The notes: generated by a model not told the origin, from the sequence alone. 64,000 nt of DNA from Bacteroidaceae bacterium (GCA_045597745.1 JAZLKQ010000528.1:2208-66207); one strand, 5' to 3'; shown: positions 1-64,000, numbered from the stretch's first letter. A program made the numbers and translations.

Positions 1-1205
1 AGCAGCACCTCACCTGTCTCGTCCGATGCCAGCTCGCACTTGTCGCGCACCTCGGCATCAAACCATACACGGAAGTAGCTGTTGCCCAGATTGTGGTTGA
101 GGCCAAGGTCATCCACCGCACATTCCATCTCAGGGCCGCTCTGCCAGTCCTTGACGTCTGCCCAGTCGGTGCCTGCCGTGTTTCGCGCCTGTGTGTGCCA
201 CAGGATATCAAGGAATATCTCCGGGTGAGTGACCTCACGTCCTCCGTTGGTGATGACTGCATAGTTGAAATACTCTCCCTGACGTACAGGGATGTCAGTG
301 CCACGTCCCACGAAGCCATCCAGCTCTGCCCTGATGACGCGCTCCACGTCTATCTGCTCCTGTGCTATGACGGCATAATTGCGGACAAACTCAATGCGGT
401 ATGATGCCTTGTCAATGAGACGCAGGTCAAGCGTGACATAAGGATATGACACAGATACCAGCTCCGGGTGGTCTATGTCTGCCGAAATGACAGCGTTGGT
501 AGTGGCATCCACCACCTGCATGGTAGTACCGACAGGCAGCGAGCCGATAGGAGTGCTGCCCTTCACAAGGCGGCATTCAATCTTCTGGAGATAGTCCTTG
601 CCGCTGGCAGCAGGAGCATCGCCACCCTCACCGATGGCGGACAGGTAGTCATACATCAGCTTGGGGTCGGCCATAGGGTCATACTGAATCCTGCCGTATG
701 AGACAAGGGCAGCGAACATGTCAACACCCTTCTCCGTTGTGGCAAGCACCAGCGTGTCACTGCGCATCTCATAGACCAGGCCTGTGCGCCAGTCCACCAT
801 CTTACCGCTGAACTCCAGCTCAAAGACCTCCTCCGGGCTGACGTTGCGCTTGACAACGAGCATGCCGCGCGTGTCGGATGCCGTCTTCACAATCTCATAG
901 TCGCGTGACTCAACCCAGCCGGCATCTGCCAGGCTCTTGCCGTTCACCTTCCATGTAAGTGAGTCCAGGTCAAGGTATTCATTGCCATTGCCATGAGCAA
1001 ACACGCGGTCAGTGTCTATGACTCTCACCTCCGGCAGGATATATGTAGGAGAAAGCCCCCTGTTAGGCTCATACTCATTACCCCCCAAGTCATACTCCTG
1101 TAGGCATGGAGAGTCAGCAGACATACACACAAGAGAGCAGGACACCGTGAGCGGTGTGAACTGCAGGCGCGTGAACTGCTGTGGCGAGATAATTGTTTTT
1201 CCCAT
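1..1205 (-). CDS. hypothetical virion/tail-module protein, 3' end outside the window
   Basis: ATG at 1205..1203 (MGKTIISPQQFTRLQF...). I hand-translated this frame down to nt 1 without a stop (about 401 codons). It is missing from the ORF track only because no stop lies in the window. It is the last gene of the minus-strand structural block. Confidence 0.7.
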   Translation of the reverse strand, partial: MGKTIISPQQFTRLQFTPLTVSCSLVCMSADSPCLQEYDLGGNEYEPNRGLSPTYILPEVRVIDTDRVFAHGNGNEYLDLDSLTWKVNGKSLADAGWVESRDYEIVKTASDTRGMLVVKRNVSPEEVFELEFSGKMVDWRTGLVYEMRSDTLVLATTEKGVDMFAALVSYGRIQYDPMADPKLMYDYLSAIGEGGDAPAASGKDYLQKIECRLVKGSTPIGSLPVGTTMQVVDATTNAVISADIDHPELVSVSYPYVTLDLRLIDKASYRIEFVRNYAVIAQEQIDVERVIRAELDGFVGRGTDIPVRQGEYFNYAVITNGGREVTHPEIFLDILWHTQARNTAGTDWADVKDWQSGPEMECAVDDLGLNHNLGNSYFRVWFDAEVRDKCELASDETGEVL

Positions 1206-9324: not shown

Positions 9325-11304
9325 TCACACTATCGGTTGCTGTCCGGGCTGCGGCCTGATGCCCTGCGGCACCACAGCCTGCTGCTGTTCCGGTGTTGCG
9401 CCAGCACTCTTCATTTCTGCCTGACGTGCCTCACGTCTCTGCTTCAGCTTCTCAATCCACGGACGCTTGCTTATCTCTGTGTAGTCATCCATGCTAATCA
9501 GACCATTGATGAGGAACTCCTTGGCATCTGCCTCGGCAATCTCACGGTAAACAGGTGTCTCTGTTGACTCCTTCACGCGCAGGTCATATGTTATGTTGCG
9601 AATCTCATTCAGCTTGAGGTTCTGGTTGTCGAATACTCCGTCAATCTCACCGCATATCTGCTGCCACCTTTCCTCATCATAGAAGGTCACAAGGTTCTTC
9701 ATCTTCTTGATGTGTATCTCCTCAATGAAGTTGTGCAGCTTCTTCAGGAACGCGGCAATGGACGTAGTAGAGTTGTTCGCCATCTGCTGGTAGAGTGCGC
9801 CCGATGCTCCGGCAAACGGTGTCTTGCCCTGCAATGCGTCCGTGATGGCTGTTGACTTGTCACCCATGCGTGAGAACGTGTCAAGGTACTTGGCCACGTC
9901 AAACGTCTGTGCATTGCCGTAGAACACCTTCGGCATCATATTCTCCATGCCCGGCTTCATATCAATGAACACCATGTCATCAATACTTGTCCATGCGTTC
10001 GCAAACTCATGCGGATCCATGTTACCCAGAATCTGCTTCGGCACTACCACAACACCCTTGGCATTGGTTCTGATGAGCCAGTCATTGAGGATGATTGCGC
10101 GGTTCATGATGATGTTGTGGTCAATCTCCGGATACAGATAGCCTTGTATCTTGCCGTCCATCATAGGTACTGCGCGAACGGTGAACGGATGTGACCTGTC
10201 AGGCAGCGGTGACTCGCCTTCCCACAGGATAGTGCCATCGGGAGCCAGGAAGCGGCAATACCAGAACTCATCAATGAAGAAGCCATCATCACCGAACTCC
10301 GTGCCGTCACCTTCTATGTATGGTATCTCCTCCTCTGTCCATCCCTGAGCAAGACCCTTCTCGCGTCTTCTCACGTTCTCCTGACGGATATACTCGCGAT
10401 ACTGGAAGTCATCGGCATCAATAATCTCCTCCGTGGCATCATTCCAGTCATGCAGCTTGATACGCGCCTTAGTCTCTTTTGTCCATGCCTCCAGCACCAT
10501 GCAGACCGTAGGGTCAGGGTCTTCCATGAACGTCAGCACGGACTCCTTGAAGCGGTCCGTAGGGTTGATGATAGCCTTCGCCTTGAACAGCTCTGACTGC
10601 TGAGAATAGATGTCGCACAGGATAGCATAGTCTGTTGCGTTACGCGCAAACTTGGCCGCTACCTTGCCGAAATCAAACTTGCACATGCGGCCAAAAGCGT
10701 TGCCGTCCCAGAAGCGTGAGTCGTCCATCTGTGTGTCGAAGATGAACATGTTAGGGTTGACGTACTGCGTCCATGAGTCATACGTCCCGTCAGGGCCACT
10801 GGTGTTGTCCCAGCTCTCATAACCTACAAGCAGACCGCCCAGACATGCCTCACGCGCCCAATCAATGTAAAGCTCATCTATCCTGTTGCGGTAGCAGTTG
10901 GACTGCACACCATTGGTAACAACCTCGCCGTACTGCTGCTCATCCTTGTCCACGGCATGACATATCGGCTCCAGCGATTCCTTGACAAGGACACCCGCCA
11001 TTGTCTCTACCTTGTTCTGTACCTGGTTTGTCTGTAGGACGGTGTTGCCTGTCTTTTGCAGGTAACGTCTCTGCGTCATCACCTCGCCATTCACCTCTAT
11101 GAGGTCACCCCACTGATCATCGTAGCCAAAGCGCACCGCCCTTGCTCGCTGCGTGCGGAACGCCTCGTTGTTCTGCCACATGTCACGGAAATACTGGAGC
11201 ATGGCAAGGTCTTTCTCCTTGCCCACAACCTTCTGTCTTGCCTTGACAGTATTCATCTTTGCAGCAGATGGTGTCTTTCGTATTAGTCTGCTCTTTGCTT
11301 GCAT
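9325..11304 (-). CDS. portal protein candidate
   Basis: 659 aa and acidic. First gene after late element #2, adjacent to the terminase operon. The call rests on size and position only. Confidence 0.55.
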   Translation of the reverse strand: MQAKSRLIRKTPSAAKMNTVKARQKVVGKEKDLAMLQYFRDMWQNNEAFRTQRARAVRFGYDDQWGDLIEVNGEVMTQRRYLQKTGNTVLQTNQVQNKVETMAGVLVKESLEPICHAVDKDEQQYGEVVTNGVQSNCYRNRIDELYIDWAREACLGGLLVGYESWDNTSGPDGTYDSWTQYVNPNMFIFDTQMDDSRFWDGNAFGRMCKFDFGKVAAKFARNATDYAILCDIYSQQSELFKAKAIINPTDRFKESVLTFMEDPDPTVCMVLEAWTKETKARIKLHDWNDATEEIIDADDFQYREYIRQENVRRREKGLAQGWTEEEIPYIEGDGTEFGDDGFFIDEFWYCRFLAPDGTILWEGESPLPDRSHPFTVRAVPMMDGKIQGYLYPEIDHNIIMNRAIILNDWLIRTNAKGVVVVPKQILGNMDPHEFANAWTSIDDMVFIDMKPGMENMMPKVFYGNAQTFDVAKYLDTFSRMGDKSTAITDALQGKTPFAGASGALYQQMANNSTTSIAAFLKKLHNFIEEIHIKKMKNLVTFYDEERWQQICGEIDGVFDNQNLKLNEIRNITYDLRVKESTETPVYREIAEADAKEFLINGLISMDDYTEISKRPWIEKLKQRREARQAEMKSAGATPEQQQAVVPQGIRPQPGQQPIV

Positions 11305-12617: not shown

Positions 12618-15311
12618 GTTGGCAAATCGTGTCTCATAATCTATATCTATCCAAGACAGCCGTTCATCGGCCGTCAGCGTTCCCAGGATCACCATGCGGA
12701 ACATCTTCCATGAGCCGCCCCGCAGTGAAGACAGCACCTTCCATTCCCTTCCGTCCATTGAGCCAAGCAGGATATAACGTGCGTGTGCCTTGTCAAAGTC
12801 ACCGCGCAGACGTATGTCCTTTATCACCTTCCTTACGTCCGTCTCGCCAAGGTCAAACGCCCTTGTGTATATCACCTGCGGCAATGCCGTGCGCTCTCCT
12901 ACTGGCGGCAAGGAAAGGCTGTAAAGCTTGCAGATGTCACCCGTTCCCTCATACACAGATACCAGTGCTTCCGGGAAGCTGGCTACCACCCCCTGCACCT
13001 TGAGGCCTGTTGCCATGGTGTGCCATGTCTGCATTGCAAGGTCATACACCATCATGTGCGTAAAATTAGGCATGAAAAATATCAGCCTTGCTCCGGCATA
13101 ATCGTACAGACACTTTGAGTTTCTCAGCCATGCAGCGAACTGAATCGGCCCTGATACCGCATTCAGCACCCAGAAACATTCATGGTTCTCAAGCATGGTA
13201 CGCACTTCTCGCGTGACAATCTCCTTCTTTCCCATCATGGCATCGCTGATATTCTGCACCTGTGAGCCACTGATGATGTTGATACCCCTCTCTGTAAAGT
13301 ACACCACGGCCTGCTGTGTCGTTGTCACGTTGGATCCAGAGACAACAATGTCACGCGACACAAGAGGAGTCTCAATAGGAATGCCCACGCCGTTTGTCTT
13401 GGCAAGGTATATGCCTATTGACGTGAATACATAAAACGCATAGCTCTGAAGATGCTCCAGGTTGATTGTTGCGCTTGCCACGTCAAGCACGTCACCGGCA
13501 AACGTCAGCCTACCCTCGTTCACGAACAGGAACGGATTGGCACTCTCTGACATTAGCAGCTTGGTCTTGTCAGTGAATGTTGAAGCTGACGCCTCCAGTC
13601 TCTTCCTTATGAAACGTGCTATAGCATCAGCATTAGGCTCATCTACCACCCTGCGTATTGATCTACTCTTGGTGTTGTCCAGCAGGACGGCATCAAGACC
13701 ACCAAAATAGTATGACGTATTGAGCAGAGGATGCTCCTTCATGGTGAATGACCAATATACAGGGGTTGCCATGCTGATTATCTCTGCCTTATAGCACTTG
13801 GCGCTCGGATAGGAAAGGTATGCGTAAACATCAGTGTTTTCTGGTATTTCAATCTCCTGCGCCCTTGCACACTTGAAGCCACCCTCCTCGTTGGTGTACC
13901 ATATCACCGTGTAACGCTTTTCTTTACCGTCTGTACCTATTCTTGTTGCAGGGAAATGCGGATAAGACTCAGGGATATGTGCTGTCACTCCGGCAAGCAC
14001 AAGACGCTCTGCATACTCCATGGCCCTTGATGCTGCCGTATAGCGGTAATGGCTGTTCTCATCATCCTTAAGGCGCGTTTCCACGGACAGCATGTCCTGG
14101 CTCTTCGGCTCCAGCGTGACACCAACGGAAAGCTCTGCAAGGTCTTCAATGTCGTATGATGCCACCTTGTAGAACTCGCTCTTCTCCGTCATGAGGTCTT
14201 CCAGAGTCTTGCCCTCATAGTCAAACTCAACCTTGCATGTGCATGATGTCTCTCCCAAGCTGGTAATCTCCGTGAAGCGCTTTATCTTGCTTGCCATCGG
14301 CGGATTGTTCAGATCCTTGCTCAAGAAGATGTCAATGCCCTTGATGACGTCCTTCCACTGCTCCACGTCAACACTTGTCAGCAGCTTGGCAGTTGCTGTG
14401 TATGTGTCAGCAGGAGCATAGTAGAATACGCACAGAGTCTTCTCATTATTCTCATCGGTGTCACCGTCATTATATGTCAGCAGGAGACCAAGGTTCATCG
14501 TGCTGTTGACTCCGGCACCAAGAAGGACAGGCACTGACTGCATGATGTATGAGTCATCGTACAGACGCAGGGCATAACGGACAAAGACAGGAGCCGTGAA
14601 CTTCTTGTTCAACGTCTTCAGTTCGTACTGGTAGTTGTTGTACCCATCCCACAAAGCACCTTCAAGAGTCGCAATGTTCTGCTTTATATGCTCTGCCGTC
14701 AATGCGTTGCCTGTATTTGTCACGTCATAGGAGCCAGCAAGGACGTTGTTGTAATAATTCAGGAACCTCTTGTTGCCCTTCTCATAGGCCATGAACAGCT
14801 TGGTTGAGCCAGACCTTGCTAATGGTGCTTCCTTCGCCGTTGTCGTGAACTGCACGTCAACTTCGGGAAGGCCGTTGCCAATAGTCTTGTATGCTCCATC
14901 CTTGAACAGCAGATAGTACGAATCCTTGTCGGTCACAATGATGACGGTGTTGCCTATGGCCACCGTTGACAGAATCTTCTCCAGCACGTCAATGTCAAAC
15001 ATATAATCAAGAAGCTTATAAGTTTCTCCCTGTTTCACACATGCGCTGATATAAGACCTGTCATCTTTTGACAGGCGCACAAAATAGTTGGTATATGCAG
15101 ACGTCCGGTGTACGAAGAAATACAGACCTTCCTCATACCCGGCATACACGTCAGGCAGGCCTATCTCTTCTGTTACGTCCACCGGGGCAGGCATTGGTGC
15201 CTGTTCCCTGTGGTCTATCATCATGTTAGCGGATTCTGCCAGTCCTCCGTCCTCGTTCATCCTGTCACTTGGGACGCGCGATATTCCTCTCAGTTGAATT
15301 TGCTTTATCAT
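12606..15311 (-). CDS. large virion protein (tail/baseplate-size), hypothetical
   Basis: 901-aa ATG ORF that starts 1 nt after the stop of the giant ORF. No motif recognised. Confidence 0.6.
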   Translation of the reverse strand: MIKQIQLRGISRVPSDRMNEDGGLAESANMMIDHREQAPMPAPVDVTEEIGLPDVYAGYEEGLYFFVHRTSAYTNYFVRLSKDDRSYISACVKQGETYKLLDYMFDIDVLEKILSTVAIGNTVIIVTDKDSYYLLFKDGAYKTIGNGLPEVDVQFTTTAKEAPLARSGSTKLFMAYEKGNKRFLNYYNNVLAGSYDVTNTGNALTAEHIKQNIATLEGALWDGYNNYQYELKTLNKKFTAPVFVRYALRLYDDSYIMQSVPVLLGAGVNSTMNLGLLLTYNDGDTDENNEKTLCVFYYAPADTYTATAKLLTSVDVEQWKDVIKGIDIFLSKDLNNPPMASKIKRFTEITSLGETSCTCKVEFDYEGKTLEDLMTEKSEFYKVASYDIEDLAELSVGVTLEPKSQDMLSVETRLKDDENSHYRYTAASRAMEYAERLVLAGVTAHIPESYPHFPATRIGTDGKEKRYTVIWYTNEEGGFKCARAQEIEIPENTDVYAYLSYPSAKCYKAEIISMATPVYWSFTMKEHPLLNTSYYFGGLDAVLLDNTKSRSIRRVVDEPNADAIARFIRKRLEASASTFTDKTKLLMSESANPFLFVNEGRLTFAGDVLDVASATINLEHLQSYAFYVFTSIGIYLAKTNGVGIPIETPLVSRDIVVSGSNVTTTQQAVVYFTERGINIISGSQVQNISDAMMGKKEIVTREVRTMLENHECFWVLNAVSGPIQFAAWLRNSKCLYDYAGARLIFFMPNFTHMMVYDLAMQTWHTMATGLKVQGVVASFPEALVSVYEGTGDICKLYSLSLPPVGERTALPQVIYTRAFDLGETDVRKVIKDIRLRGDFDKAHARYILLGSMDGREWKVLSSLRGGSWKMFRMVILGTLTADERLSWIDIDYETRFANRLR

Positions 15312-29000: not shown

Positions 29001-32000
29001 ACAGCGCAAGCGAAGTGTTTGGGAACCTTTCTTTATGTGCCAGCGCACGTCTGCCAATCTCCTTTGTCCAGTCTGCGCCCTTCTCGTCAGGAAGGAATGT
29101 AGTAAATATGGTGTCTATGTATGCTATCGGCTTTCCGTCAACATCATGTGTTCTCGGCCATTCGTAGTTTCTTCTGGCAGATGTCACGGACTTGTCGATA
29201 TGCACCTCATTACCGGAAGACACGGTTACACCTTCAAGGTCTTCTGCCTCATCAAGGAACGCATCAATAGCCTTGTCTCGTTCCTCCTTGGTGCTTGTCC
29301 AGACGGCATCACCTGTAGGGAACACGGCAAGACCGAACTTGTCGGCTCTGGCTTTCTCCTTTGCTTCAAGCTCAATCTGCTTCTGTGTCTTGTATGCGAT
29401 GCTCTTTTCCAGGCAGTCAACAGCAAAGTCGTACACATGTTCAATGAGTTCCTTGTACTGCGGATATTTCTTCAGCGCAAGCGGCTTCTTTTGTCTTGTC
29501 TTTTCAAGTGCGCGTGTATCACTTTCAATGTCATCAATGTTGCGGAGCCTGCTGCCTTGATAGCATTCTGTTTTTTGAAGCAGTGACTCGATTGCATCTG
29601 TTGCGTATCTGTGCCCCTCCAGTGCAAAATGTACGATACGGTCTGCAAGACTGTTGGCATTCTTGTAAATAAAGAAGTCACCCAGCGCTGCCTTCTGCTT
29701 GTCAGACATCTTGTCTTGCTCATCCTTGTATGAATCAAAGTTCCAAGCCTTTGCAAGCCTTGCAGCCTCTTTCTTAATGCGCTCACGGAAATGCTCCCAT
29801 GTTTCTTCGTCTTCCTGCTCCTCTATACGCTGCTGTGCAAGCATGGTCTGTGCTATGGCAGCACCAGCCTCTGCATGTGCTTCCTGCTCCTTCTTGAGAT
29901 TCTGTGCTGTGGCAATGGCATCCGGCTTCTCTTTGTCGAAGTTGGTAACGTCAAACGCCAGGACGTCATTGTATGAGTCCATTTCTCCCACCATGCCAGA
30001 AGCTTCCGGAAGGTCGCGCACTGCATTGTAGAATGATTTGAGGTATGGACGCACCTCATCACCAAGGTCAGCAATCATGCTTGACGCGTAGTTCACGAAC
30101 TTTCGTGCGCCACGCTCAAGATGATAGACAGCCATTTCGGTACCGATGGCAAGAATCTCTGGATCTATGCCCATGTTCATCTGACCCGTGAGTTTCTTCT
30201 TCATGCGGGCCTTCAACTGCGCATACCTCTCATCAGTAACCAGTCTGTTGCCGGAAGGATTGTGGTTCACATCGCTGTGCTCGTTGACTACAGGAGAAAT
30301 CTGCTCTTCGGTTGCAAATGCTATCTCTTTGCCGGACTTAAGCCTGTAACCATTGTTGTCTGTTCCAGCAGGAATGTAATGGCCGACAATGGTGTATTCC
30401 TTGCCATTGAACATGACATTGGAACCCTGCGGATACTTGAATGACTCCCAGCGACTCTTTTGTGGCTCAGTTACACCTTCCTCGCTCTCGGTGTTTTCCA
30501 CAGCCTGGGCAGGAGTGTTGGCGCTTTCATCTGCCTTCTGCTCCTGCTCGCCAGTCTGTGTGTTGGTATTAGATTGTATGAGTTCTGCGAATGGTACATA
30601 GCCATCAGGCAAGTAAGACTGTCTGTCAGCCTTGCTTACTCCACAGCGAGAAAGAAGAATCTCAACCCATTCCTCGCGTTCTTCTGCGGCCTTTCTGATG
30701 TTATTTAATGATGCCTGTCTTCTGCGCTCGTTAGCTGCACCTATTGTCGTGATAGTGCTTTCCAGATCTTCGTACTTGCCGCCAGCCTCAACCTTGGTGT
30801 TGTTCTTTTTATAGACGCGGCTTGCCCAGTCCTTGTACTCCTTTGCATAGCCAGGAATGTCTGCAAGAATCTTCGCAATAGCCTCACGCACATTGCTTGA
30901 TGTCGCAAGGGCCGTTGCATACTCATTCCTGCCGTGCTTGGCTTCCTGTGCAAAACTGGCCTTCTCCTCATCAAACTTGCGCTGAACCTCATCAGTTGCA
31001 TTGCCATTAGAATCAACAAGCACGTTTCGCGGACGAAGATCCTTAACTATTAGACTTGCGAATCCATGACGCTGACGCGGTGCTGGCTTGGAACCTTCAA
31101 ACTCTGCGTCAACAACATGAATATTGCCATTAGAATCAACAAGCACGTTTCGCGGACGAAGATCCTTAACTATTAGACTTCCGTTTGCATATTCCCCTTT
31201 GCCAACCCTTGAGAAGCCAAGTTGACGCATATAATCGTCTATCTGCTCCTCTGTGCATAATTTTGCATTATTAACAAATCGCTGGCGATATACGACATAA
31301 GCAGTTCCTTCCCCAAAACTTGCAATTCCAACAAGCTCGTATGCAGATTCTGGGAATAAACTATTGAATAGGGCTACTCTTTGCAGCAAATTTGCTATGC
31401 TGCCTCCCGTATGTGACAGATTGTTTACTTTGTAGATATACCCATCTTCCGATAGGTAATTATCATTCTCATCACCAGACTCAAATGGTGTACCGAAATT
31501 GGCTGTGGAAAGTTCGTGCCAAACACCTCTTTCCTTTGCCCATTTGATTGCGGCCGCAGCCTGTTCCTGACCGCTCTTGCCTTTTACTTCTCTTTCAAGG
31601 CTGAGTGCATCTTCCTGTGACGCTCCACTTCCTCCTGGACGTTCACTGGACCTTGATTCCTCAGATACTCCATTGCCTTCTGTGAGTTCTGACGGTGATA
31701 TTCGTTGAGATACTGTGTCATCGTTTTGATTTTCTTCTGCAAAGTTATCATTATTATTTTTTCCAGCAACTTCTGCTGACTGAGTTTTGCCCTTTCTTAC
31801 AAGAGTGATATTTTTTGGGATGTTCTCGCTCCAGGTTGTGCCGTCTTCCTCAAAGTACACATTGATTGCAGGCTGTCCGTTGAAAACAGTCTCCTTGATT
31901 TTCGTGATAGTCTTTTCGCCCTTATAGCCACGGACGTTGATAACATCACCAACTGCAAGCTCGTTGCCATCCTTATCTTTTGCAACATTCTCTTGTTTAT

Positions 32001-41273: not shown

Positions 41274-41317
41274 CGAAAATATGCAAGCCATGGAACGCTG
41301 TAAGTCTATCTTAGCCT
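41274..41317 (-). promoter_or_regulatory. late-promoter-like composite element #5
   Basis: AGGCTAAGATAGAC (41317..41304), a 22-nt spacer, then TATTTTCG (41281..41274). The integrase TAA stop (41311-41313) lies inside the 14-mer. Confidence 0.5.
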
Positions 41318-42378
41318 ATTTGAGGTATCAGCTCTGCCGCCTCGCGCTTCTTCTTGTCCACCACCTTTGCGTAAATCTGCGTAGTGTTTACGTTAGAGTG
41401 TCCCAGCAGCCTTGATACGGTGTATATGTCTGCTCCGTATGTTATGAGCAATGTCGCGTATGTGTGACGTGCGCAGTGAAATGTTATGTGCTTATTGATG
41501 CCTGCCCTCTTCACCCATGTGGCCAGCACCTCGCCCAAAGCATTACGGTTGAACGCGCGGAAAACGTTCTTCATATACGGATTGCGTTTCGGAAGCCATG
41601 CTATAGCATTTTCCGTCAGTGGCACCTGCACCATCCTCTTTGTCTTGACCTGCACCTTCTCCACCATCATGCCGTTCTCATCCTGCTTTATCTCTTCCCA
41701 CGTCAGAGTCTCCAGGTCTATGAGACGGAGTCCCGTGAAGCATGAGACAAGAAACATGTTCTTGACAAGAGACTGACAAGGAGTTGCCATAAGCTTCTTC
41801 ACCTCATCAAGCGTGAGAAATTCACGCTTTACCTCTTCCATTTCCGGCTTTTCCTTTCTTGCCAGCTTGCTTGCTGGGTTGATGTCAAGAAGATCTTCGC
41901 GCACCGCAGCACTGAGCAGGGTGACAATGGTGAAAAAGTATGTGTAGCATGTGTTCACACTATACTTGCCCGTCCTCTGTAATGAACGTGAGAATTCCCT
42001 CAACCATGCACCATCTATCTCATCAAGGTACAACTTGCCCACGAACTTCTTTACCTTTGCATACCCCTCTGCGCGTGAGTGACTGCCACGACTCTCATAC
42101 TCCGCGACCTTTTCATCTATGTAATCCGAAAACAACTTGCGCTGTCTCTTCGGCTTTATTCCGGCCATACCGTTCTGGAGATCTATAGTGCGCTGTGCCT
42201 TGATGGTCATTGCCGCCTTCATGGTCTCCTGGTTCTGTATCTTGTCCAGCTTTGTCTTCTCTGCAACAAGGTACATCTTAAGATATTCCTTGCGTCTTAC
42301 ACCATTGATGCTGTAATCAAGATACAAGCTCTGTCCCTCGCGCATCGGCTTCTTCCTGAGTGTTACAAGCTCCTTCAT
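41311..42378 (-). CDS. int: tyrosine site-specific integrase
   Basis: C-terminal HCARHTYATLLITYGADIYTVSRLLGHSNVNTTQIYAKV carries the R..H-x-x-R..Y catalytic signature. The N-terminal LRKKPMREGQSLYLDYSINGVRRKEYL is a Bacteroidales-type arm-binding domain. The first ATG is at 42378. Confidence 0.9.
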   Translation of the reverse strand: MKELVTLRKKPMREGQSLYLDYSINGVRRKEYLKMYLVAEKTKLDKIQNQETMKAAMTIKAQRTIDLQNGMAGIKPKRQRKLFSDYIDEKVAEYESRGSHSRAEGYAKVKKFVGKLYLDEIDGAWLREFSRSLQRTGKYSVNTCYTYFFTIVTLLSAAVREDLLDINPASKLARKEKPEMEEVKREFLTLDEVKKLMATPCQSLVKNMFLVSCFTGLRLIDLETLTWEEIKQDENGMMVEKVQVKTKRMVQVPLTENAIAWLPKRNPYMKNVFRAFNRNALGEVLATWVKRAGINKHITFHCARHTYATLLITYGADIYTVSRLLGHSNVNTTQIYAKVVDKKKREAAELIPQIG

Positions 42379-42624
42379 AATGAGGTACAAAAAAGGGACA
42401 AATAATTAGGAAAATGTGGGAAATAGGCGGGAATTAAACGGGTAATTCCGTCCCTTCTAACACCATTTGTACCATACTCAAAAGACACTATGTCAGTCAT
42501 TTGGATAGTCATTTTACACGTTTTGCTTCTGAACATATTTACTTATATTTATATTGTATTTATATTACTAATCTATAATCTTTTATCGTGTTTTCTACAA
42601 CCCCACCCAGGGCCACTCAAGGGA

Positions 42625-45301: not shown

Positions 45302-46129
45302 ATGAGCAACCTGAAAGAATTTAACCTGGCAATAGGTCAGGAAAGAACCAAGGACTACCTCAAGGGTATGCTTGGCAGTGAGAAGAAACGCGACTCTTTT
45401 GTCACAACCCTTACGGCTGCTGTCAGCGATGACAAGCTCTTGCAGAAATGCGACCCCATGAGCATCATGTATGCAGCACTCAAGGCCACCGCCCTTGACC
45501 TGCCGATAGACAAGAATCTCGGTTATGCCGCCCTGATCCCATACAAGGACAACGAGAGCGACAAAGAAGTAGCGCAGTTCCAGATCATGCGCAACGGATG
45601 GATAGAGCTGGCACAGCGAAGCGGCAAGATACGCACCATCGTGAACGAAGTTGTCCATGAAGGCGAGCTTGTCAGCAAGAACAAGTTCACAGGCGAATAC
45701 ATCTTTGATGAAGACAAGCGCACATCTGACAAGGTTATCGGCTACATGGCTTACGTCTATACCACCGACGGGTTCCAGAAGACAATCTATTGGGACGAGA
45801 AAAAATGCCGCCAGCATGCAAAGACCTACTCCAAGACCTACAAGAAGGGCAAAGGACTCTGGGTTACAAATTTTGATGCCATGGCTCTGAAGACGGTGCT
45901 GAAGCATCTTATCACCAAGTATGTGCCAAAATCGGCCGCTATGCTTGAGGCTATCCGCACAGACCAGGCTGTACTCGGTGAAGACCTTGCACCCAAGTAC
46001 ATTGACAACCCTGTTGAGTACACGGAAGCGCAGGACGTGACCGATGAGACACCGGCATACAACGACCTGGTTGAGGAGAAGAAGGAAGAACTGCGCCAGC
46101 GTCAGAACACAGCACCTGAACTGCCATGA
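45302..46129 (+). CDS. recT: RecT-family single-strand annealing protein
   Basis: CDPMSIMYAALKATALDLPIDKNLGYAALIPYKD...AQFQIMRNGWIELAQRSGKI follows the RecT core pattern. Confidence 0.75.
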   Translation: MSNLKEFNLAIGQERTKDYLKGMLGSEKKRDSFVTTLTAAVSDDKLLQKCDPMSIMYAALKATALDLPIDKNLGYAALIPYKDNESDKEVAQFQIMRNGWIELAQRSGKIRTIVNEVVHEGELVSKNKFTGEYIFDEDKRTSDKVIGYMAYVYTTDGFQKTIYWDEKKCRQHAKTYSKTYKKGKGLWVTNFDAMALKTVLKHLITKYVPKSAAMLEAIRTDQAVLGEDLAPKYIDNPVEYTEAQDVTDETPAYNDLVEEKKEELRQRQNTAPELP

Positions 46130-48165
46130 ACAAGTACAGCAGTTATTCCGCAGACCAGTTAGAGGAACTCTTCTCCAACTATCTGATAGACTCCTGGAGC
46201 TACAGCAAGGTAAGCACCTTTGCACGTAATGAGAAAGCATTTGAAATGCTCTACATCTACTGCGAGAAGGAACGCCGTTCAGTGTCATCCATTGCTGGAA
46301 ACGCCTATCATGAAGCGCTGAAAGCCTACTTTGAGAACTGGACAGCCGTAATAGGCAGCAACCAGAACATCGTGTCCATGACAGAGCTGGCCTATCAGTA
46401 CATTGATGAGATCCCGGCTAACGACTGGCGTCTGTCCGACAAGTTCCCTACGGTTGACGCAGCAAGAGAGGAAGCCACAAAGCTTGCAACCGCCCTCATA
46501 ACGAACTTCCTTGCCGAAGCAGACATCTATACGCATGACCTTGCAAAAGTCCTGTCAGTAGAAGTCAAGGAATCAGCATGGGTAGTGTGCAACGGTGTTG
46601 ACATACCTCTGCCTCTGCATTACATTGCAGACCTTGTGGCTGAGACCTTTGACGGCAAGACCATCGTAATAGACCACAAGAGCAAGTCAGCCTACACCCC
46701 TGCCGATGAGATTGCACTTACCCACGGACAGCAGGCAATCACCTACGTCCTGGGATATGAAGCAACCAACCCAGGAAGCAAGGTTGATGAAGTCTGGTTC
46801 ATTGAGAACAAGGCAAGCAAGAACCGCGACAAGTCAGCACAGCTCCGCAAGCACGTCATCACCATGGACGATGACACACGCAAGCTGTATGAGTACTATC
46901 TGTATGAGCCACTGAAGCGCATGCTGTCAGCAGTCTCTAACCCCGATTATTCTTATCTCATCAACAACACCGACAACCTTACGGACAAGGCTGCTCTCTA
47001 TGAGTTCTCTGCCCGTACACTCATTGCCGAGGTTGATGACTTCAACGTACCGGACGGAAAGAAAGAGGCCATTGCCCGCAGACTCCGCAAGATCAAGGAC
47101 TCCAGCATGGCCATGATTTCCCCGAAGGTTATCTCAACGTTCCGCAAGAACGCTGCATCATTCATCACTTTTGACTACACGAACACGAATATGACAAACA
47201 CAGAGAAGATTGAACACGCTTTCCGTTCATTCGGCAAGCAAGTGCAGGTGGCCCATGAGATTGAAGGCTTCTCCTGCAACACATACCTGTGCCAGGTTGC
47301 CGCCGGAGTGCAGCTTGGTTCCCTCAATTCATACGTCAAGGACATTGCATACGCTCTTGATGTACCTACGGTACGCATCGCCCGGGAACTTGTCATGTAT
47401 GACGGCAAGTCCTATCTGAGCATTGAGGTCAACAAGAAGAACACCGAGACCCTGCTGTGGGACAACGGCTATGCACATGACAAGGTTATCCCTGTCGGCC
47501 TGAACAACTTCCGTCAGCCCGTAGAATGGAACCTTGACAACCACTCCACACCACACGTCCTTGTCTGTGGCGCTACTGGCTCCGGCAAGTCCGTCATGGT
47601 ACGTTCATCAATCCGCTACGCGCAGTACATCGGAGTCCAGGACATCATAATCCTTGACCCAAAGTATGAGTTCTGCGACATTGAAGGTGACAGCAATTGT
47701 GAAATCCGCGTCTATAACGACATCCGCGACATTGAGACCGCCCTTGAAGGCATGGTAGCAACCATGAACGAAAGGGTACGCAACAAGGAGAAGAAGCTTA
47801 CGCTTGTAGTCTTTGATGAGTTTGCCGATGCTCAGGACCAGTCCAAGGAACTGCACCGCAAGGATAAGGACTACCCTACAATGCCGATGGAGGTATCATT
47901 CAAGATGCTCCTTCAGAAAGGACGTTCATGCGGTTTCCGCTTCCTTGCCGCTACACAGCGAGCAGACACCAAGACCATATCAGGCAGCACCAAGGTCAAC
48001 TTCCCGGTGCAGATCTGCTTCCGCGTACCAAAGGCAATTGACTCAAAGGTTGTCATTGATGAGGAAGGAGCCAACGGCCTTGCAGGTAAGGGTGACGGAC
48101 TGATGAAGTCACCGGAGTATCTTGACCAGCTTGTACGATTCCAGGGATTCTATTGCGAAGAGTGA
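46126..48165 (+). CDS. RecB-like PD-(D/E)xK nuclease fused to FtsK/HerA-type ATPase
   Basis: N-terminal half: IADLV...IVIDHKSKS...HGQQAITYVLGY (D, DxK and QxxxY motifs). C-terminal half: LVCGATGSGKSV (Walker A), LTLVVFDEFAD (Walker B) and FLAATQRAD (FtsK-type ATQRP). Confidence 0.75.
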   Translation: MNKYSSYSADQLEELFSNYLIDSWSYSKVSTFARNEKAFEMLYIYCEKERRSVSSIAGNAYHEALKAYFENWTAVIGSNQNIVSMTELAYQYIDEIPANDWRLSDKFPTVDAAREEATKLATALITNFLAEADIYTHDLAKVLSVEVKESAWVVCNGVDIPLPLHYIADLVAETFDGKTIVIDHKSKSAYTPADEIALTHGQQAITYVLGYEATNPGSKVDEVWFIENKASKNRDKSAQLRKHVITMDDDTRKLYEYYLYEPLKRMLSAVSNPDYSYLINNTDNLTDKAALYEFSARTLIAEVDDFNVPDGKKEAIARRLRKIKDSSMAMISPKVISTFRKNAASFITFDYTNTNMTNTEKIEHAFRSFGKQVQVAHEIEGFSCNTYLCQVAAGVQLGSLNSYVKDIAYALDVPTVRIARELVMYDGKSYLSIEVNKKNTETLLWDNGYAHDKVIPVGLNNFRQPVEWNLDNHSTPHVLVCGATGSGKSVMVRSSIRYAQYIGVQDIIILDPKYEFCDIEGDSNCEIRVYNDIRDIETALEGMVATMNERVRNKEKKLTLVVFDEFADAQDQSKELHRKDKDYPTMPMEVSFKMLLQKGRSCGFRFLAATQRADTKTISGSTKVNFPVQICFRVPKAIDSKVVIDEEGANGLAGKGDGLMKSPEYLDQLVRFQGFYCEE

Positions 48166-53438: not shown

Positions 53439-54098
53439 ATGAAAACGTACAAGGGTTTTGACAAGAACTTGCAGTGTAGGGGCTTTCAATACGAAGTCGG
53501 CAAGGAGTATGAAATTGAGGGTGAGATATCAGTGTGCAACAGGGGCTTTCATGCCTGCGAGTCACCACTGGAGGTGTTTGACCATTATGACATGTTGACT
53601 TCCAGATTCTGCGAGGTTGAGCAGACAGGCAAGATTGACAAGGGAAATGGCACAACAAAGGTGTGCTCGTCAAAAATAAAAGTCGTTGCAGAGCTTAAGC
53701 TGGCTGACATGATTAGGCTGGGCGTGGAATGGCTCAAAGAGGTGACATCGCACACAACAGGTGCAGAAAATGATAATGGCGGTTACTATGCACAGATAGG
53801 CAGTAGCGGTGACTCTGCAAAGATAGGCAGTAGCGGTGACTATGCAAAGATAGGCAGTAGCGGTGACTCTGCAAAGATAGATTCAACTGGCAGCGATAGT
53901 GTTATCTGCTGCGCAGGTAATAACTCTGTTGTCAAGGCAAAAAAAGGCAGCTGGATAACGCTTTCGGAATGGAAATACGATGATCAGAAAGAGCGGATGG
54001 TCCCGGTATGTGTAAAGACGGAGTATGTGGACGGTGACCGCATAAAGGCAGACACTTGGTATTGTTTGAAAAATGGCGGTTTTGTGGAGGTAAAATGA
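53439..54098 (+). CDS. conserved phage hypothetical protein (YKGF..C.GFqYe..C..GFHAC N-domain + SGDxAKIGS repeat domain)
   Basis: MKTYKGFDKNLQCRGFQYEVGKEYE...CNRGFHACESPLEVFDHYD, followed by IGSSGD[SY]AKIGSSGD repeats. Confidence 0.6.
   Translation: MKTYKGFDKNLQCRGFQYEVGKEYEIEGEISVCNRGFHACESPLEVFDHYDMLTSRFCEVEQTGKIDKGNGTTKVCSSKIKVVAELKLADMIRLGVEWLKEVTSHTTGAENDNGGYYAQIGSSGDSAKIGSSGDYAKIGSSGDSAKIDSTGSDSVICCAGNNSVVKAKKGSWITLSEWKYDDQKERMVPVCVKTEYVDGDRIKADTWYCLKNGGFVEVK
53794..53880. repeat. 27-bp in-frame tandem repeat, 3.2 copies
   Basis: agataggcagtagcggtgactctgcaa at 53794, 53821 (1 mismatch) and 53848, plus a partial copy at 53875-53880. Confidence 0.95.
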
Positions 54099-54427
54099 AG
54101 CACATATACATATCCCTGCCAATGACTGGCAGAAAAGAAGCAGATATTGAGGGTGACATCATGGTCGCAAAGGCAAAGCTCAAGCAGATGTTCCCTGATT
54201 GTGAGATAACAAGCCCTTTGGACATATACAAAGCAAACAAGGAGATTGTTGGGCATCTGCCAGACGGACTCAAATACGCGGTCTTGATGGGCAAAGACGT
54301 TGAGCATATCATCGGTCGGTGCGACACGGTGTATTTCTGTTGTGATCCTGCAAGTTGTAGCAGTAGAGGTGTCCGCGCTGAGTTTGAGATTGCAAAGGTG
54401 TATGACAAGGAAATACAGATTGGGTAA
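54095..54427 (+). CDS. DUF4406-like (nucleoside 2-deoxyribosyltransferase-fold) protein
   Basis: MKHIYISLPMTGRKE...GRCDTVYFCCDPASCSSRGVRAEFEIAKVYDKEI follows the pattern iYiagPmtG...cD.v..l.gW..S.Ga..E...A. ATGA overlap. Confidence 0.55.
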   Translation: MKHIYISLPMTGRKEADIEGDIMVAKAKLKQMFPDCEITSPLDIYKANKEIVGHLPDGLKYAVLMGKDVEHIIGRCDTVYFCCDPASCSSRGVRAEFEIAKVYDKEIQIG

Positions 54428-54429
54428 TC

Positions 54430-54669
54430 ATGAGTAGAAAATTGATGGCATACATGGCATCTGCACTTGCCATGAGCGCGACAACAGGATATGTTCCTAA
54501 CAGCCAAAGAGGGCCGTCTGATACACGCAACAAAGGCTGCAACCCTAAGAGGTGCAAGTCATGCGCGTTATTCCACAAGCACAACTCTTATAGGTGTAAT
54601 TGCGACAAATACCCACTTAGAAGCCCTATGGATATAGCGTGTAATGATTATAAAAAACGTAAGAGATAA
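54430..54669 (+). CDS. Cys-rich hypothetical protein
   Basis: 79 aa: KGCNPKRCKSCALFHKHNSYRCNCDKYPLRSPMDIACNDY. Confidence 0.45.
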   Translation: MSRKLMAYMASALAMSATTGYVPNSQRGPSDTRNKGCNPKRCKSCALFHKHNSYRCNCDKYPLRSPMDIACNDYKKRKR

Positions 54670-60917: not shown

Positions 60918-62165
60918 TTAACCACCGTTATATATGCGGTTGAAAACAAGCTTGCCATTTTCCTCTGCTGCACGGAAGCGGCCGTTGCTTACTATATCAA
61001 AGCCCTGTGGTGAGACACGGAAGCCAAAGCTGCCAATGGTACCTTCTATCATACCATCATCCTCACTGACCTTGAACATGCGTGTATTCTGTTCCGTAGT
61101 ACCGAAGCGGCAGAGGATGCCGTTTGTCGCAACTATGACCAGGTTGGTGCGCTTAACCGAACCGTGTACATATCCACTAAGGTAAGCAGGAAAAGAATAT
61201 GGACCAGTCATGGCACCTGGGCCACCGACAGAACAAACTACTATCACATGAAGATAATAATGCCCATCGTTCGGTATGTCAGCGGTAAACCCTTTGCTGA
61301 GATATTGCCTCAACACCCTATGGTTTGGGTCTGTTGTTCCTTCAAAGAAGAACACCTCTTCGTAAAGTTTCTCCCTATCTGTGGTATCATACAGATAGAA
61401 GGTAACAGTATAACTTACATTACCTATTCCAGCCGTAGAGCTTTGGCCATCATAGTTGAGAGGACCCCGGTATGCTTCTATCCAAGACCTGCTCCCGCTC
61501 ACTTCAATGGTGTTACCCTTCTCCTGCTGTCCCAAGTCAATGAAATGCGCACCTATCTGCTGTGTCCCCCAATGACCATTGCAGTCTATGTCTGCGTCTG
61601 ACCGCGGAATGGACGTTATAAGCGTTGATGTGGATTGCTCCTCAACGTCACCAATCCCACCGGCAACAACCCTTGCAACAGGCACACCCTTGCTGTCAAG
61701 AATCTGTATGGAGTCACCTTCTATTACAACCTTGTTGTTGTTGCGTGACGGCAGGGTATCCAGCCGCTTGACCGTCAGGGCATCAATGAATGCCTGTGAT
61801 GCCGCCAGGCTCTGCACATTGATATAATCGGCAGAGAGCTGCTTTGTCAGTATGAGTGGAGAGATCAGCGGACGCAGCACGTCCGCTTTCTCCCAATACT
61901 CGCCCTCTACCAATGGTACGGCAGAGGATGACGTGTGTGTCTTCCTGCACACATAGGCATTAAAGTTGTCGCGTCCATAGATGCTGACATCCCGGTCAAT
62001 GACAACATCAAGGTAGCGCACCCCATCCGTCTTCAAGGCCTCATCGTTGTGGTACTCAATGCCCATCTGCCACACGGACGTGCGTACAGAGCAGCCATCG
62101 TAGCCAGTGTCACCCTTCGGCCCCGGCTGCATGAACCTCACTGTCTGCGACCCACGGATTGCCAT
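60918..62165 (-). CDS. tail fibre protein
   Basis: 415 aa with an N-terminal collagen-like PGPKGDTGYDG. The following motif YVCRKTHTSSSAVPLVEGEYWEK is common in phage fibre shafts. 1-nt gap to the upstream ORF. Confidence 0.6.
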   Translation of the reverse strand: MAIRGSQTVRFMQPGPKGDTGYDGCSVRTSVWQMGIEYHNDEALKTDGVRYLDVVIDRDVSIYGRDNFNAYVCRKTHTSSSAVPLVEGEYWEKADVLRPLISPLILTKQLSADYINVQSLAASQAFIDALTVKRLDTLPSRNNNKVVIEGDSIQILDSKGVPVARVVAGGIGDVEEQSTSTLITSIPRSDADIDCNGHWGTQQIGAHFIDLGQQEKGNTIEVSGSRSWIEAYRGPLNYDGQSSTAGIGNVSYTVTFYLYDTTDREKLYEEVFFFEGTTDPNHRVLRQYLSKGFTADIPNDGHYYLHVIVVCSVGGPGAMTGPYSFPAYLSGYVHGSVKRTNLVIVATNGILCRFGTTEQNTRMFKVSEDDGMIEGTIGSFGFRVSPQGFDIVSNGRFRAAEENGKLVFNRIYNGG

Positions 62166-62166
62166 A

Positions 62167-62526
62167 TCAGCCTACTATTGCGTGACCAGCCTCTGCGCAC
62201 ATCGTGCGCCACATATCAAAGCCACGGAAGGCAACGATGCCCTCACCATCAAGGTTACCTGCAAGGATATCCTTCACGGCATTGGCAAGAAGCGCAATCT
62301 CATCCTTTGGGGCAAAGGCAGCTTCAATGAGCTGACTCTTGATATGGCCATACTCCTTCAGACCGTCAATCTCTACCTGGAAGGCTTCGTATGTTACAGA
62401 CTCTGCACCTTCTGCATCAGTGCCTACAATCTCTTCAATGTCCAGGCTGACAGTCTTTGTCTCTGGATCATACACAGCTGGCATGACATCCATGCTGCGC
62501 TTTGACAACATTCCAATCTTCTTCAT
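62167..62526 (-). CDS. acidic hypothetical protein (fibre-associated?)
   Basis: 119-aa ATG ORF between the RT and the tail fibre. Its acidic composition is unlike Avd. Confidence 0.5.
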   Translation of the reverse strand: MKKIGMLSKRSMDVMPAVYDPETKTVSLDIEEIVGTDAEGAESVTYEAFQVEIDGLKEYGHIKSQLIEAAFAPKDEIALLANAVKDILAGNLDGEGIVAFRGFDMWRTMCAEAGHAIVG

Positions 62527-62541
62527 ATCAGAACAGATTTA

Positions 62542-63927
62542 TTATTCTTTATACACAATCTTACCATCCACAAGGCTCACGTCCTTGCCACCAATGGCCA
62601 GTATCTCTATTTCGTCATCCACCATGTCATAGTTGTTGCCGTCCTGCCGTATAATAGTAGAAAACCTTGATACGTCATTGTCATCAAGAGCCTTGACCAT
62701 CGCCTTGATGCCTATGCTGTTGGTGATGACCTTGCCCTTCATGCCACCGCTCAAGGTGACATGCATCGCAAGCCTGTTAGGCCCATGCTTGGTCTTCACG
62801 CCAAACACCCAGTCTGAAATGACAATCCTGTCTCCCACCACCATGCGCATGCTCATCGGGCGTTCATCAATGATTCTCACGCCATCCCTGTCAGCACGCG
62901 GCTGACGCGCGATGCCCAGCTCCTTCAGTCCAACCTTTGACATAGTGTTCTTCTTATATAGTTCATGGCAGCTCCTTCCTCCATGTTTAAGCATTCCCCA
63001 CGCCGCAGCATCCAGCTCCCTTATGCGCTTCTTGCTGGTGACATGACTCCTGTGTCTCAGCCACCGTGCCTTGTTACGTCTGCGCCAGTACATGATGCCA
63101 TCCTCATAGTACACGAAGCCCAGGATATCCAGGCCACTGTGAAGAGGAGCGACAACCATAGGGTGCAGCCTGAAGCCAAGCGCCTCAAGACGTGCCACCA
63201 GCCGCTTTGCATTACGCCTCACCTCGCCCTTTGTCCTGCCCATGATGAGTATGTCATCAAGGTATCTGAGGTAATAGTGTATGCGGAGCGCCTCCTTGGC
63301 ATGGTGGTCAACACCATTCAGGGCGATGTTGCCCGCCAACTGACTCACCCTGGCACCCAGAGGTATGCCTACACCATCCTTACGGAACGTGCGTAACGGT
63401 TCAACGAATGCTTCAACATATTCCCTGTCCTTGAAGATACGCAACATCTCTGACTCAACAAGTGCATGAGGAATGTTCTCATAGTACTTGCAGATGTCAA
63501 GCTGTGCATACCAGCGCGTGCCGTCAGGATCTCTCCGTATCCAGTCACGCGCCTGAAGCGCAGCCTTTATCTGTCCATATCCCTTACGGCTGGCATAGGT
63601 GTGCCGTATGAAGGACTTATCAGCCCGGTTTTCGCCAGCAAGGACAAGGCTCTGCTGTTGTATATGATTAGGATGGAAATGGAGCTTGCTGATGTCCCTC
63701 ACCTTGTCAGAACCGCTCTTGCGCTTCTCCGTGATGTAGGGATGTGTCTTCATCGTGCGGTCTATCATCTGCTGCTGTATCTCAACCATGTTGGCCATGC
63801 GGTTTGCCACATGCAGCTTGAGACCCCTGTTGTGCTTCATCTTCCTGCGTACCGTGACCGTCTCTGCATAGCGCAGGTTGTCCCAGTCCCACATGGTATC
63901 ATATATGTTACCTTTCCTCTTAGGCAT
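62542..63927 (-). CDS. DGR-type reverse transcriptase with C-terminal extension
   Basis: GIPLGARVSQLAGNIAL (63337-63369) fits the DGR signature [ILV]GxxxSQ. YLRYLDDILIMG (63244-63279) is the YxDD box. By eye it is collinear with Bordetella phage Brt (LDICKYYENIPH, GLDILGF). About 125 extra residues follow the thumb. Confidence 0.85.
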   Translation of the reverse strand: MPKRKGNIYDTMWDWDNLRYAETVTVRRKMKHNRGLKLHVANRMANMVEIQQQMIDRTMKTHPYITEKRKSGSDKVRDISKLHFHPNHIQQQSLVLAGENRADKSFIRHTYASRKGYGQIKAALQARDWIRRDPDGTRWYAQLDICKYYENIPHALVESEMLRIFKDREYVEAFVEPLRTFRKDGVGIPLGARVSQLAGNIALNGVDHHAKEALRIHYYLRYLDDILIMGRTKGEVRRNAKRLVARLEALGFRLHPMVVAPLHSGLDILGFVYYEDGIMYWRRRNKARWLRHRSHVTSKKRIRELDAAAWGMLKHGGRSCHELYKKNTMSKVGLKELGIARQPRADRDGVRIIDERPMSMRMVVGDRIVISDWVFGVKTKHGPNRLAMHVTLSGGMKGKVITNSIGIKAMVKALDDNDVSRFSTIIRQDGNNYDMVDDEIEILAIGGKDVSLVDGKIVYKE

Positions 63928-64000
63928 TGCGATTAATGCTTGCTTCTATTCTTCAAGGAGCGTTCGAATCACTGCTGACCTACTAACACCTTTGGGCAGT

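Follow-up and report, generated by a model that had tools for sequence, protein, structure and literature searches.

The locus and its reverse transcriptase

The window analysed here is a whole stretch of 64,000 nt from a Bacteroidaceae bacterium (GCA_045597745.1 JAZLKQ010000528.1:2208-66207). At its right edge, on the minus strand, lies a gene for a reverse transcriptase (RT) of the type found in diversity-generating retroelements (DGRs), which also comprise a template repeat (TR) and a variable repeat (VR) within a target gene. The coordinates of this gene and of the other features are collected in Table 1. The initial annotation had described an open reading frame (ORF) of 461 aa with two motifs and 73 nt of upstream sequence within the window. 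Both GIPLGARVSQLAGN and YLRYLDDILIMG were found in the translation, and the upstream sequence occupies positions 63928-64000 as described. Profile searches assign the protein to the Pfam family RVT_1 (E 1.9e-12, over the gathering threshold) and to PHROG 1423 ('reverse transcriptase', E 1e-54). On these profile matches, its identification as an RT is far above chance.

Comparison by phmmer with all PDB sequences gave as the top match the RT of Bordetella phage BPP-1 (bRT, 8ub7_A, 328 aa; E 2e-15), which outranks group II intron RTs and Drt3a. Residues 1-275 of the protein align with residues 1-267 of 8ub7_A, bearing out the earlier proposal that the two are collinear through the fingers, palm and thumb. 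An AlphaFold2 model computed with 30 family members as input has a mean predicted local distance difference test score (pLDDT) of 82.5. The score is at least 79 in most 10-residue blocks from residue 11 to 260, dips to 58-66 near residues 71-80 and 111-120, and lies at 57-78 by residue 310. The top PDB fold match of the model is again 8ub7_A (E 5.4e-18; template modelling (TM) score 0.84 normalised to the target), ahead of the G2L4, group II intron, DRT9, DRT2 and retron RTs.

The core carries the motif LGARVSQ, which is of the [ILV]GxxxSQ type, and the catalytic motif YLDD. Every residue that is invariant in the alignment of the RT family, including the catalytic motifs, is kept, and one motif position differs: the window RT has Val (GARVSQ) in place of the Pro (GIRPSQ) found in at least 90% of the family. 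By sequence, by its [ILV]GxxxSQ and YxDD motifs and by fold the protein is identified as a DGR-type RT, nearest to a known DGR RT (bRT, as judged by the PDB sequence and fold matches), in agreement with the initial annotation.

Beyond the core, a basic linker modelled with low confidence (residues 310-333) leads into an additional C-terminal domain. This domain is conserved throughout the aligned RT family, and its residues 348-433 match PHROG 19665, a family of unknown function (E 2.5e-6). Modelled alone it reaches a pLDDT of 93. A fold search of the PDB with this domain gave no significant match; the weak ones were to oligonucleotide/oligosaccharide-binding (OB) fold proteins (Teb1, PrgE and SSB; E at least 0.08). 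Significant matches in BFVD were to other viral proteins with RT domains; phage proteins that bind single-stranded DNA came after these as weak matches (E 0.015-0.2, TM about 0.4). No nuclease or effector fold was matched in the PDB or BFVD searches. It may be hypothesized from these weak matches that the domain is OB-like and binds nucleic acid. About 20% of DGR RTs have a post-thumb extension of up to about 150 aa with no recognised motif (Wu et al. 2018, PMC5758913).

Template and variable repeats in related loci

The relatives of the RT in the protein database consist of one at 81% identity (P0002) and well over a hundred full-length proteins at 41-49% identity. They are about 455-480 aa long and conserved through the C-terminal region, and the hosts named in their genome records are Prevotella, Porphyromonadaceae, Proteiniphilum, Rikenellaceae and Bacteroidaceae. 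Three loci were studied closely: L001, an IMG/VR contig; L003, a prophage in a metagenome-assembled genome, where it adjoins an integrase and his genes; and L004, a Logan contig. Each has a pair of 106-109-bp repeats directly upstream of the RT gene, and the mismatches between the two copies fall at adenines of the RT-proximal copy (17/17 in L001, 13/13 in L003 and 13/14 in L004). The distal copy, the VR, ends 60-70 nt short of the stop codon of a gene of 446-458 aa that matches PHROG 5302 'tail protein'. DGR targets generally encode a ligand-binding fold, usually of the C-type lectin type, with the VR at the 3' end of the gene. The peptide encoded by the VR in the relatives, QLWLWGGxSxxGSxCGLAY..., presumably resembles the VRs of the C-type-lectin type. 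A GC-rich 3' end of the TR, ...CTCGGCTCGC, is common to the relatives. An ORF of 105 aa across the TR of L004, not conserved elsewhere and with only a sub-threshold Pfam hit, was treated as spurious.

A systematic scan covered 42 further IMG/VR loci (RT identity 40-48%), 40 of them with upstream DNA. A repeat pair (106-124 bp) stands at the same upstream place in all 40, and template adenines account for at least 80% of the mismatches in 36. The distance from the end of the TR to the start of the RT is 198-358 nt in these loci. Where genomes are nearly identical, most of the differences between them fall in the VR, at template-adenine positions. L009 and L049 show 21 differences in 2.2 kb, of which 11 fall within the 113-nt VR, all at TR-adenine positions, and 14 of the 20 differences between L013 and L012 are within the VR. 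Such pairs of sequences therefore indicate that diversification is ongoing in the RT family.

The 74-kb phage contig of L001 (IMGVR_UViG_3300032007_000069) carries, about 10 kb upstream of the first RT, a second RT paralogue (nt 7-976; 59% nucleotide identity) with a TR/VR-like stretch at its start (nt 11-62). Some members of the family may hold two DGR cassettes.

A structured RNA between the template repeat and the reverse transcriptase

In the RT family a spacer of about 210 nt separates the TR from the RT gene, and Rfam has no family for it. The 73 bases upstream of the RT in the window align with the 3' end of this spacer, including the invariant GGTGTTAGTA. RNAalifold predicts 23 base pairs in the family spacer, with compensatory changes in 15 of them. 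In the closing helix 93.9% of the cells are paired, a value reached by none of 500 shuffles. The two outermost pairs of this helix are A-U in the window, as against G-C and U-A in the family majority.

A covariance model (R1) was built from 20 relatives, with the window and L002, the contig of the closest relative, excluded. Searched against the 64 kb, it gave a single significant, full-length hit at 63935-63999 on the minus strand (51.4 bits, E 7.7e-10); the next hit had an E of 0.84. It also matches L002 and five Bacteroidales genome loci. The noncoding segment between TR and RT that is characteristic of DGRs is thus conserved and covarying in the relatives, and its 3' element is present in the window. 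By these alignments the rest of the spacer and the TR are placed beyond nt 64000. In BPP-1, RNA segments flanking the TR are reported to be needed for complementary DNA (cDNA) synthesis (bioRxiv 10.1101/2023.10.23.563531). By analogy, the spacer would have a role in priming.

Search for repeats and targets within the window

A sensitive self-blastn of the 64 kb detected no repeat pair with adenine-biased mismatches, as the initial annotation had found by eye, and only three short tandem-type repeats. Two of these are within a giant ORF (31000-31190 and 36923-37182) and one is at 53762-53880. The last, on the plus strand, is a 65-bp direct repeat of 85% identity with an offset of 54 bp and mismatches without adenine bias, in the region of the ORFs 53439-54098(+) and 53932-54507(-).

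In place of the genome's own TR, the adenine-masked TRs of L001, L003 and L004 and the partial TR of L002 were used to scan both strands of the window for a VR. Nothing rose clearly over the shuffled background: the best matches were 44/84 and 29/49, as compared with shuffled maxima of 40 and 27. A tblastn search with three target proteins of relatives found no homologue in the window (best E 0.39), and no second RT was found there.

The closest relative and the sequence outside the window

The RT of the closest relative, P0002, is encoded on a Logan contig (L002) that starts 269 nt upstream of the RT gene. The first ~58 nt of this contig align with the 3' half of the TRs of the relatives; this stretch of TR (nt 1-61 of L002) lies 212 nt before the RT start. 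A second contig of the same sample (L057) carries an 86%-identical homologue of the gene that is cut by the left edge of the window. Its gene order is 411 aa, 71 aa, 355 aa and a target homologue, which runs off the contig end at ...DNFWYDAAGQLWLVGGSSG (nt 13735-13754), precisely the point at which the VR starts in other relatives. With one contig ending at the VR start and the other starting inside the TR, the assembler broke this genome at the TR/VR pair, which points indirectly to the existence of both repeats in the lineage of the window itself. Two other contigs, L006 and L005, start 279 nt and 508 nt upstream of the RT. The genomes of DGR-bearing phages may often be fragmented or mis-circularised at the TR/VR pair.

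A protein identical to the window RT (P0001) is encoded on a 67,070-nt NCBI contig, of which 3,070 nt are outside the window. The structural gene at the left edge has a reading frame open through nt 1, and its protein P0243, encoded on that contig, extends 11 aa beyond the edge. The homologous gene of the relatives stands three genes ahead of the DGR target, and the window gene thus serves as a synteny anchor. The content expected between it and the RT amounts to about 3,106 nt, in agreement with the 3,070 nt to about 1%. The sum is made up of the gene end (36 nt), the sequence of L057 to its contig end just inside the VR (2,518 nt), the remainder of the VR with the target tail and intergenic sequence as in the relatives (about 305 nt), the 5' part of the TR (about 51 nt) and the unseen spacer as in L002 (196 nt).

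The agreement in size would fit a circular or circularly permuted genome. The missing segment would then hold, in order, the gene end, the 71-aa gene, the 355-aa gene, the target with its VR, the TR and the 5' part of the spacer. In coordinates extended beyond the window, on the minus strand, the predicted positions are about 64,140-64,250 for the TR and about 64,400-64,600 for the VR. Both repeats almost certainly belong to the ~3 kb of this contig that adjoin the window. The initial annotation had expected the TR, any Avd and the target to lie probably beyond nt 64000. For the TR and target this is upheld by the TR/VR pairs of the family, the split assembly of the closest relative, the spacer element in the window, and the synteny and size of the 3,070 nt; for the Avd it is not, the family being Avd-less.

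Neighbouring genes and phage context

The RT had been placed at the head of an operon. The comparisons place it instead inside a co-directional structural block, directly after the target. The predicted order of the block is the 411-aa, 71-aa and 355-aa genes, the target tail protein with its VR, the TR, the RT, a 119-aa gene and a 415-aa gene. The space downstream of the RT is filled by the next ORF, as first described, with a gap of 15 nt rather than the 16 nt given then.

That next ORF encodes an acidic protein of 119 aa. By tblastn, 46 related loci have a homologue as the gene immediately following the RT, with isoelectric points (pI) of 4.2-5.2. The protein has no Pfam, PHROG or PDB match. 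It may be a DGR accessory factor or simply a conserved gene of the tail module. The 415-aa gene that follows has no family match in Pfam or PHROG and is 35% identical over 83 aa (E 2e-6) to the 897-aa protein of L003. From its size and position, the large post-RT gene of the relatives (897-1912 aa) is probably a tail fibre gene.

The avd gene is present in about 74% of DGRs and is thus common, not defining. No ORF in or beside the cassettes of the relatives has a Pfam hit to an Avd family, or any hit above the gathering score. No Avd-like family occurs among the 25 listed of the 32 matched for the 56 small ATG-start ORFs of the window. In L001 only 150 nt separate the target stop from the TR, which leaves no room for an avd gene in the relatives. 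None is expected here, because the whole RT family has an Avd-less TR-RT cassette. A divergent Avd could nevertheless be present, as Avd sequences are poorly conserved.

The integrase, portal, capsid-like and terminase-like genes of the window (Table 1) together indicate a temperate tailed phage with a genome of about 67 kb. A third of the window (15313-37206, minus strand) is a single ORF of 7,297 aa, by Pfam a phage 'polyvalent protein' and unusually long even for its class. Its domains are Kinase-PolyVal (E 9e-29), a PBECR3 nuclease, LPD1, a RadC-like JAB domain, MuF_C, ART-PolyVal and LPD38. The window has no tRNA genes and no Rfam family at gathering score.

Table 1. Features of the 64,000-nt window, with the evidence for each
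Feature	Position (nt)	Strand	Evidence
DGR reverse transcriptase gene, 461 aa	62542..63927 (including stop)	-	ATG-start ORF; Pfam, PHROG and PDB matches
RT core (fingers, palm, thumb), residues 1 to ~310	62998..63927	-	bRT alignment, AlphaFold2, family alignment
RT C-terminal extension domain, residues 335-461, mainly beta strands	62545..62925	-	Family conservation, model
3' element of the structured TR-RT spacer RNA: closing helix, inner hairpin, invariant GGTGTTAGTA	63935..63999	-	Alignments, covariation, covariance model
Acidic 119-aa protein, pI 4.5, 15 nt downstream of the RT	62167..62526	-	tblastn, alignment
415-aa downstream gene; context, not part of the DGR	60918..62165	-	tblastn of L003 897-aa protein
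Structural gene cut by the left edge, synteny anchor	1..1205	-	tblastn of L003 423-aa protein, E 1.8e-83
568-aa gene	3254-4960	-	Syntenic 568-aa gene of L057 with SU10-type major capsid Pfam domain
Portal gene	9325-11304	-	PHROG 156
Tyrosine integrase	41311-42390	-	PHROG 1, E 2e-52
679-aa protein, exonuclease-like N-terminus and FtsK/terminase-like ATPase	46126-48165	+	

Interpretation

The RT very probably belongs to an Avd-less DGR, arranged target(VR)-TR-spacer-RT and carried by a temperate phage of Bacteroidales with a genome of about 67 kb. The grounds are the identity of the RT, the cassette found throughout the family, the spacer element and the synteny; the presence and position of this genome's own TR and VR are predicted from them. 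By analogy with BPP-1, the RT would bind an RNA that spans the TR and the structured spacer of about 210 nt. Synthesis of cDNA would start at the TR/spacer boundary, copy the TR and misincorporate opposite template adenines. In homing, the cDNA would then replace the VR at the 3' end of the tail-protein gene of about 450 aa directly upstream, and the replacement would change the receptor-binding surface of the tail protein. In DGRs an IMH/IMH* pair and a hairpin at the 3' boundary of the VR guide this step.

Several observations weigh against this interpretation. The genome's own TR and VR are absent from the window, so the support for them is comparative, and its own target protein is not among the 120 listed of the 653 target homologues from a profile search. 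The target proteins of the relatives, whose C-type lectin fold is putative, have no Pfam match and no PDB sequence match. No Avd was found, so the BPP-1 mechanism is not transferable unchanged. In addition, the mismatches show no clean adenine bias in 4 of the 40 scanned relatives (L022, L023, L045 and L046), whose repeat pairs stand some 280-360 nt before the RT; decayed cassettes therefore exist in the family. The four may reflect cassette decay, an assembly that is recombinant or chimeric, or mutation of the TR itself.

The last point bears on whether the window itself holds an orphan or decayed DGR, in which the RT and spacer survive, the TR and VR have been lost or have drifted, and nothing is diversified. 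Such decay would fit the repeats that were not observed in this genome, the mixed mismatches of the four relatives and the Val in place of the family Pro. However, all family-invariant residues including the catalytic motifs are present, the spacer element scores as high as in relatives with intact cassettes, a VR start as well as a TR 3' end occur in the closest relative, and the length of the missing 3,070 nt agrees with a full cassette. Nor is Pro required at the motif position, since bRT has Thr at the equivalent place. A decayed element is accordingly held to be decidedly unlikely. It was also considered, following the initial annotation, that the cognate or a second target might be remote, among the minus-strand structural genes of the window. 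DGRs with several targets are known (Wu et al. 2018, PMC5758913), a further RT paralogue, accompanied by TR-like sequence, lies about 10 kb from the first on the contig of one relative, and the window was scanned with the TRs of relatives rather than its own. The scan nevertheless stayed near the shuffled level, and neither a target homologue nor a second RT appeared in the window, which leaves a remote target very improbable.

That the protein is not a DGR RT at all, but a group II intron maturase, a retron RT or a defence RT (DRT, UG or Abi), might be argued from its matches to the group II intron RT model TIGR04416 (E 2.5e-19), to Drt3a (E 3e-11) and to several PADLOC UG/DRT models (E 1e-15 to 1e-20). 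These scores are far under the curated cut-offs: 69.6 as against 300 bits for TIGR04416, 43 as against 200 for Drt3a and 24 as against 235 for retron St85. The window contains no group II intron, retron or other Rfam RNA, the protein has the [ILV]GxxxSQ motif with bRT as its best sequence and structure match, and every relative with context has a TR/VR pair. The chance of a non-DGR RT is judged to be extremely small.

With the RT read as part of an Avd-less DGR, the question arises of what takes over the function of the BPP-1 Avd pentamer. It is conceivable, though rather doubtful, that the element is truly Avd-independent and that the C-terminal domain of the RT (~125 aa), the structured spacer RNA and perhaps the acidic 119-aa protein take this part. 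If so, the mutagenic RT of the family would be compact and in essence a single polypeptide. Should the C-terminal domain replace Avd, the family would provide a useful minimal system for the study of adenine mutagenesis or for targeted diversification tools. The working of an Avd-less RT with an extra C-terminal domain is the sole part with some potential for novelty, and RT extensions as such were already noted by Wu et al. 2018.

Another DGR from a gut Bacteroidales phage adds a member rather than a concept. The added value is modest and consists of an Avd-less TR-RT cassette, a covarying spacer RNA outside Rfam, an extra C-terminal RT domain that folds with confidence and an invariably adjacent small acidic protein. 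For annotation, the locus implies that diversification of a tail protein is very probable in this 67-kb temperate phage, that the host-range determinant to follow is encoded upstream of the RT, and that short-read assemblies of phages like it are prone to breakage at the TR/VR pair.

Comparison with known systems

DGRs in gut Bacteroidales phages have already been documented in Hankyphage, in crAss-like phages and in large metagenome surveys. The best-matching system of known structure is that of BPP-1 (mtd-avd-TR-brt; bRT structures 8ub7 to 8ubf). The two RTs are collinear, with bRT the top sequence and fold match. In both, the order target(VR)-TR-spacer-RT is found or predicted on one strand among tail genes; the mismatches, seen here in the relatives, are adenine-specific, and a structured RNA lies between TR and RT. 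However, the RTs are only 22% identical in the fold alignment, and the window cassette appears to be without avd. The window RT has 461 aa as against 328 aa in bRT, owing to the C-terminal domain of about 125 aa. Unlike the BPP-1 target, the targets of the relatives have no sequence match to any PDB chain, a set expected to include Mtd, and the spacer of the window family, of about 210 nt, is not in Rfam.

Of the RTs in deposited phage genomes, the one nearest to the window protein belongs to Hankyphage (Bacteroides phage p00, BK010646). With 93% of the query aligned (residues 3-429), the match takes in most of the C-terminal extension, and the host order, Bacteroidales, is the same. The order annotated in the Hankyphage record likewise runs VR, TR, about 210 nt, RT (Benler et al. 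2018, PMC6199706). The RT identity is only 29%, and Hankyphage is a 43-kb Mu-like transposable phage with a target of more than 2,200 aa. It has a small basic ORF (computed pI 9.7) that was proposed to be Avd-like (PMC6199706), the ORF after its RT has no detectable homology to the 119-aa family, and the R1 spacer model does not match it.

Wu et al. 2018 (PMC5758913) found that 29% of DGRs are without an accessory gene and consist of a TR-RT core (architecture A1), and that one lineage lacks avd. The post-RT protein of the window family (119-150 aa) resembles the CH1 accessory protein of Avd-less DGRs from the same study (acidic, 160-169 aa, pI 4.7) only in charge and context. In its TR-RT core, in the absence of avd from the lineage and in the extension of the RT, the window family agrees with the account of that study on each point.

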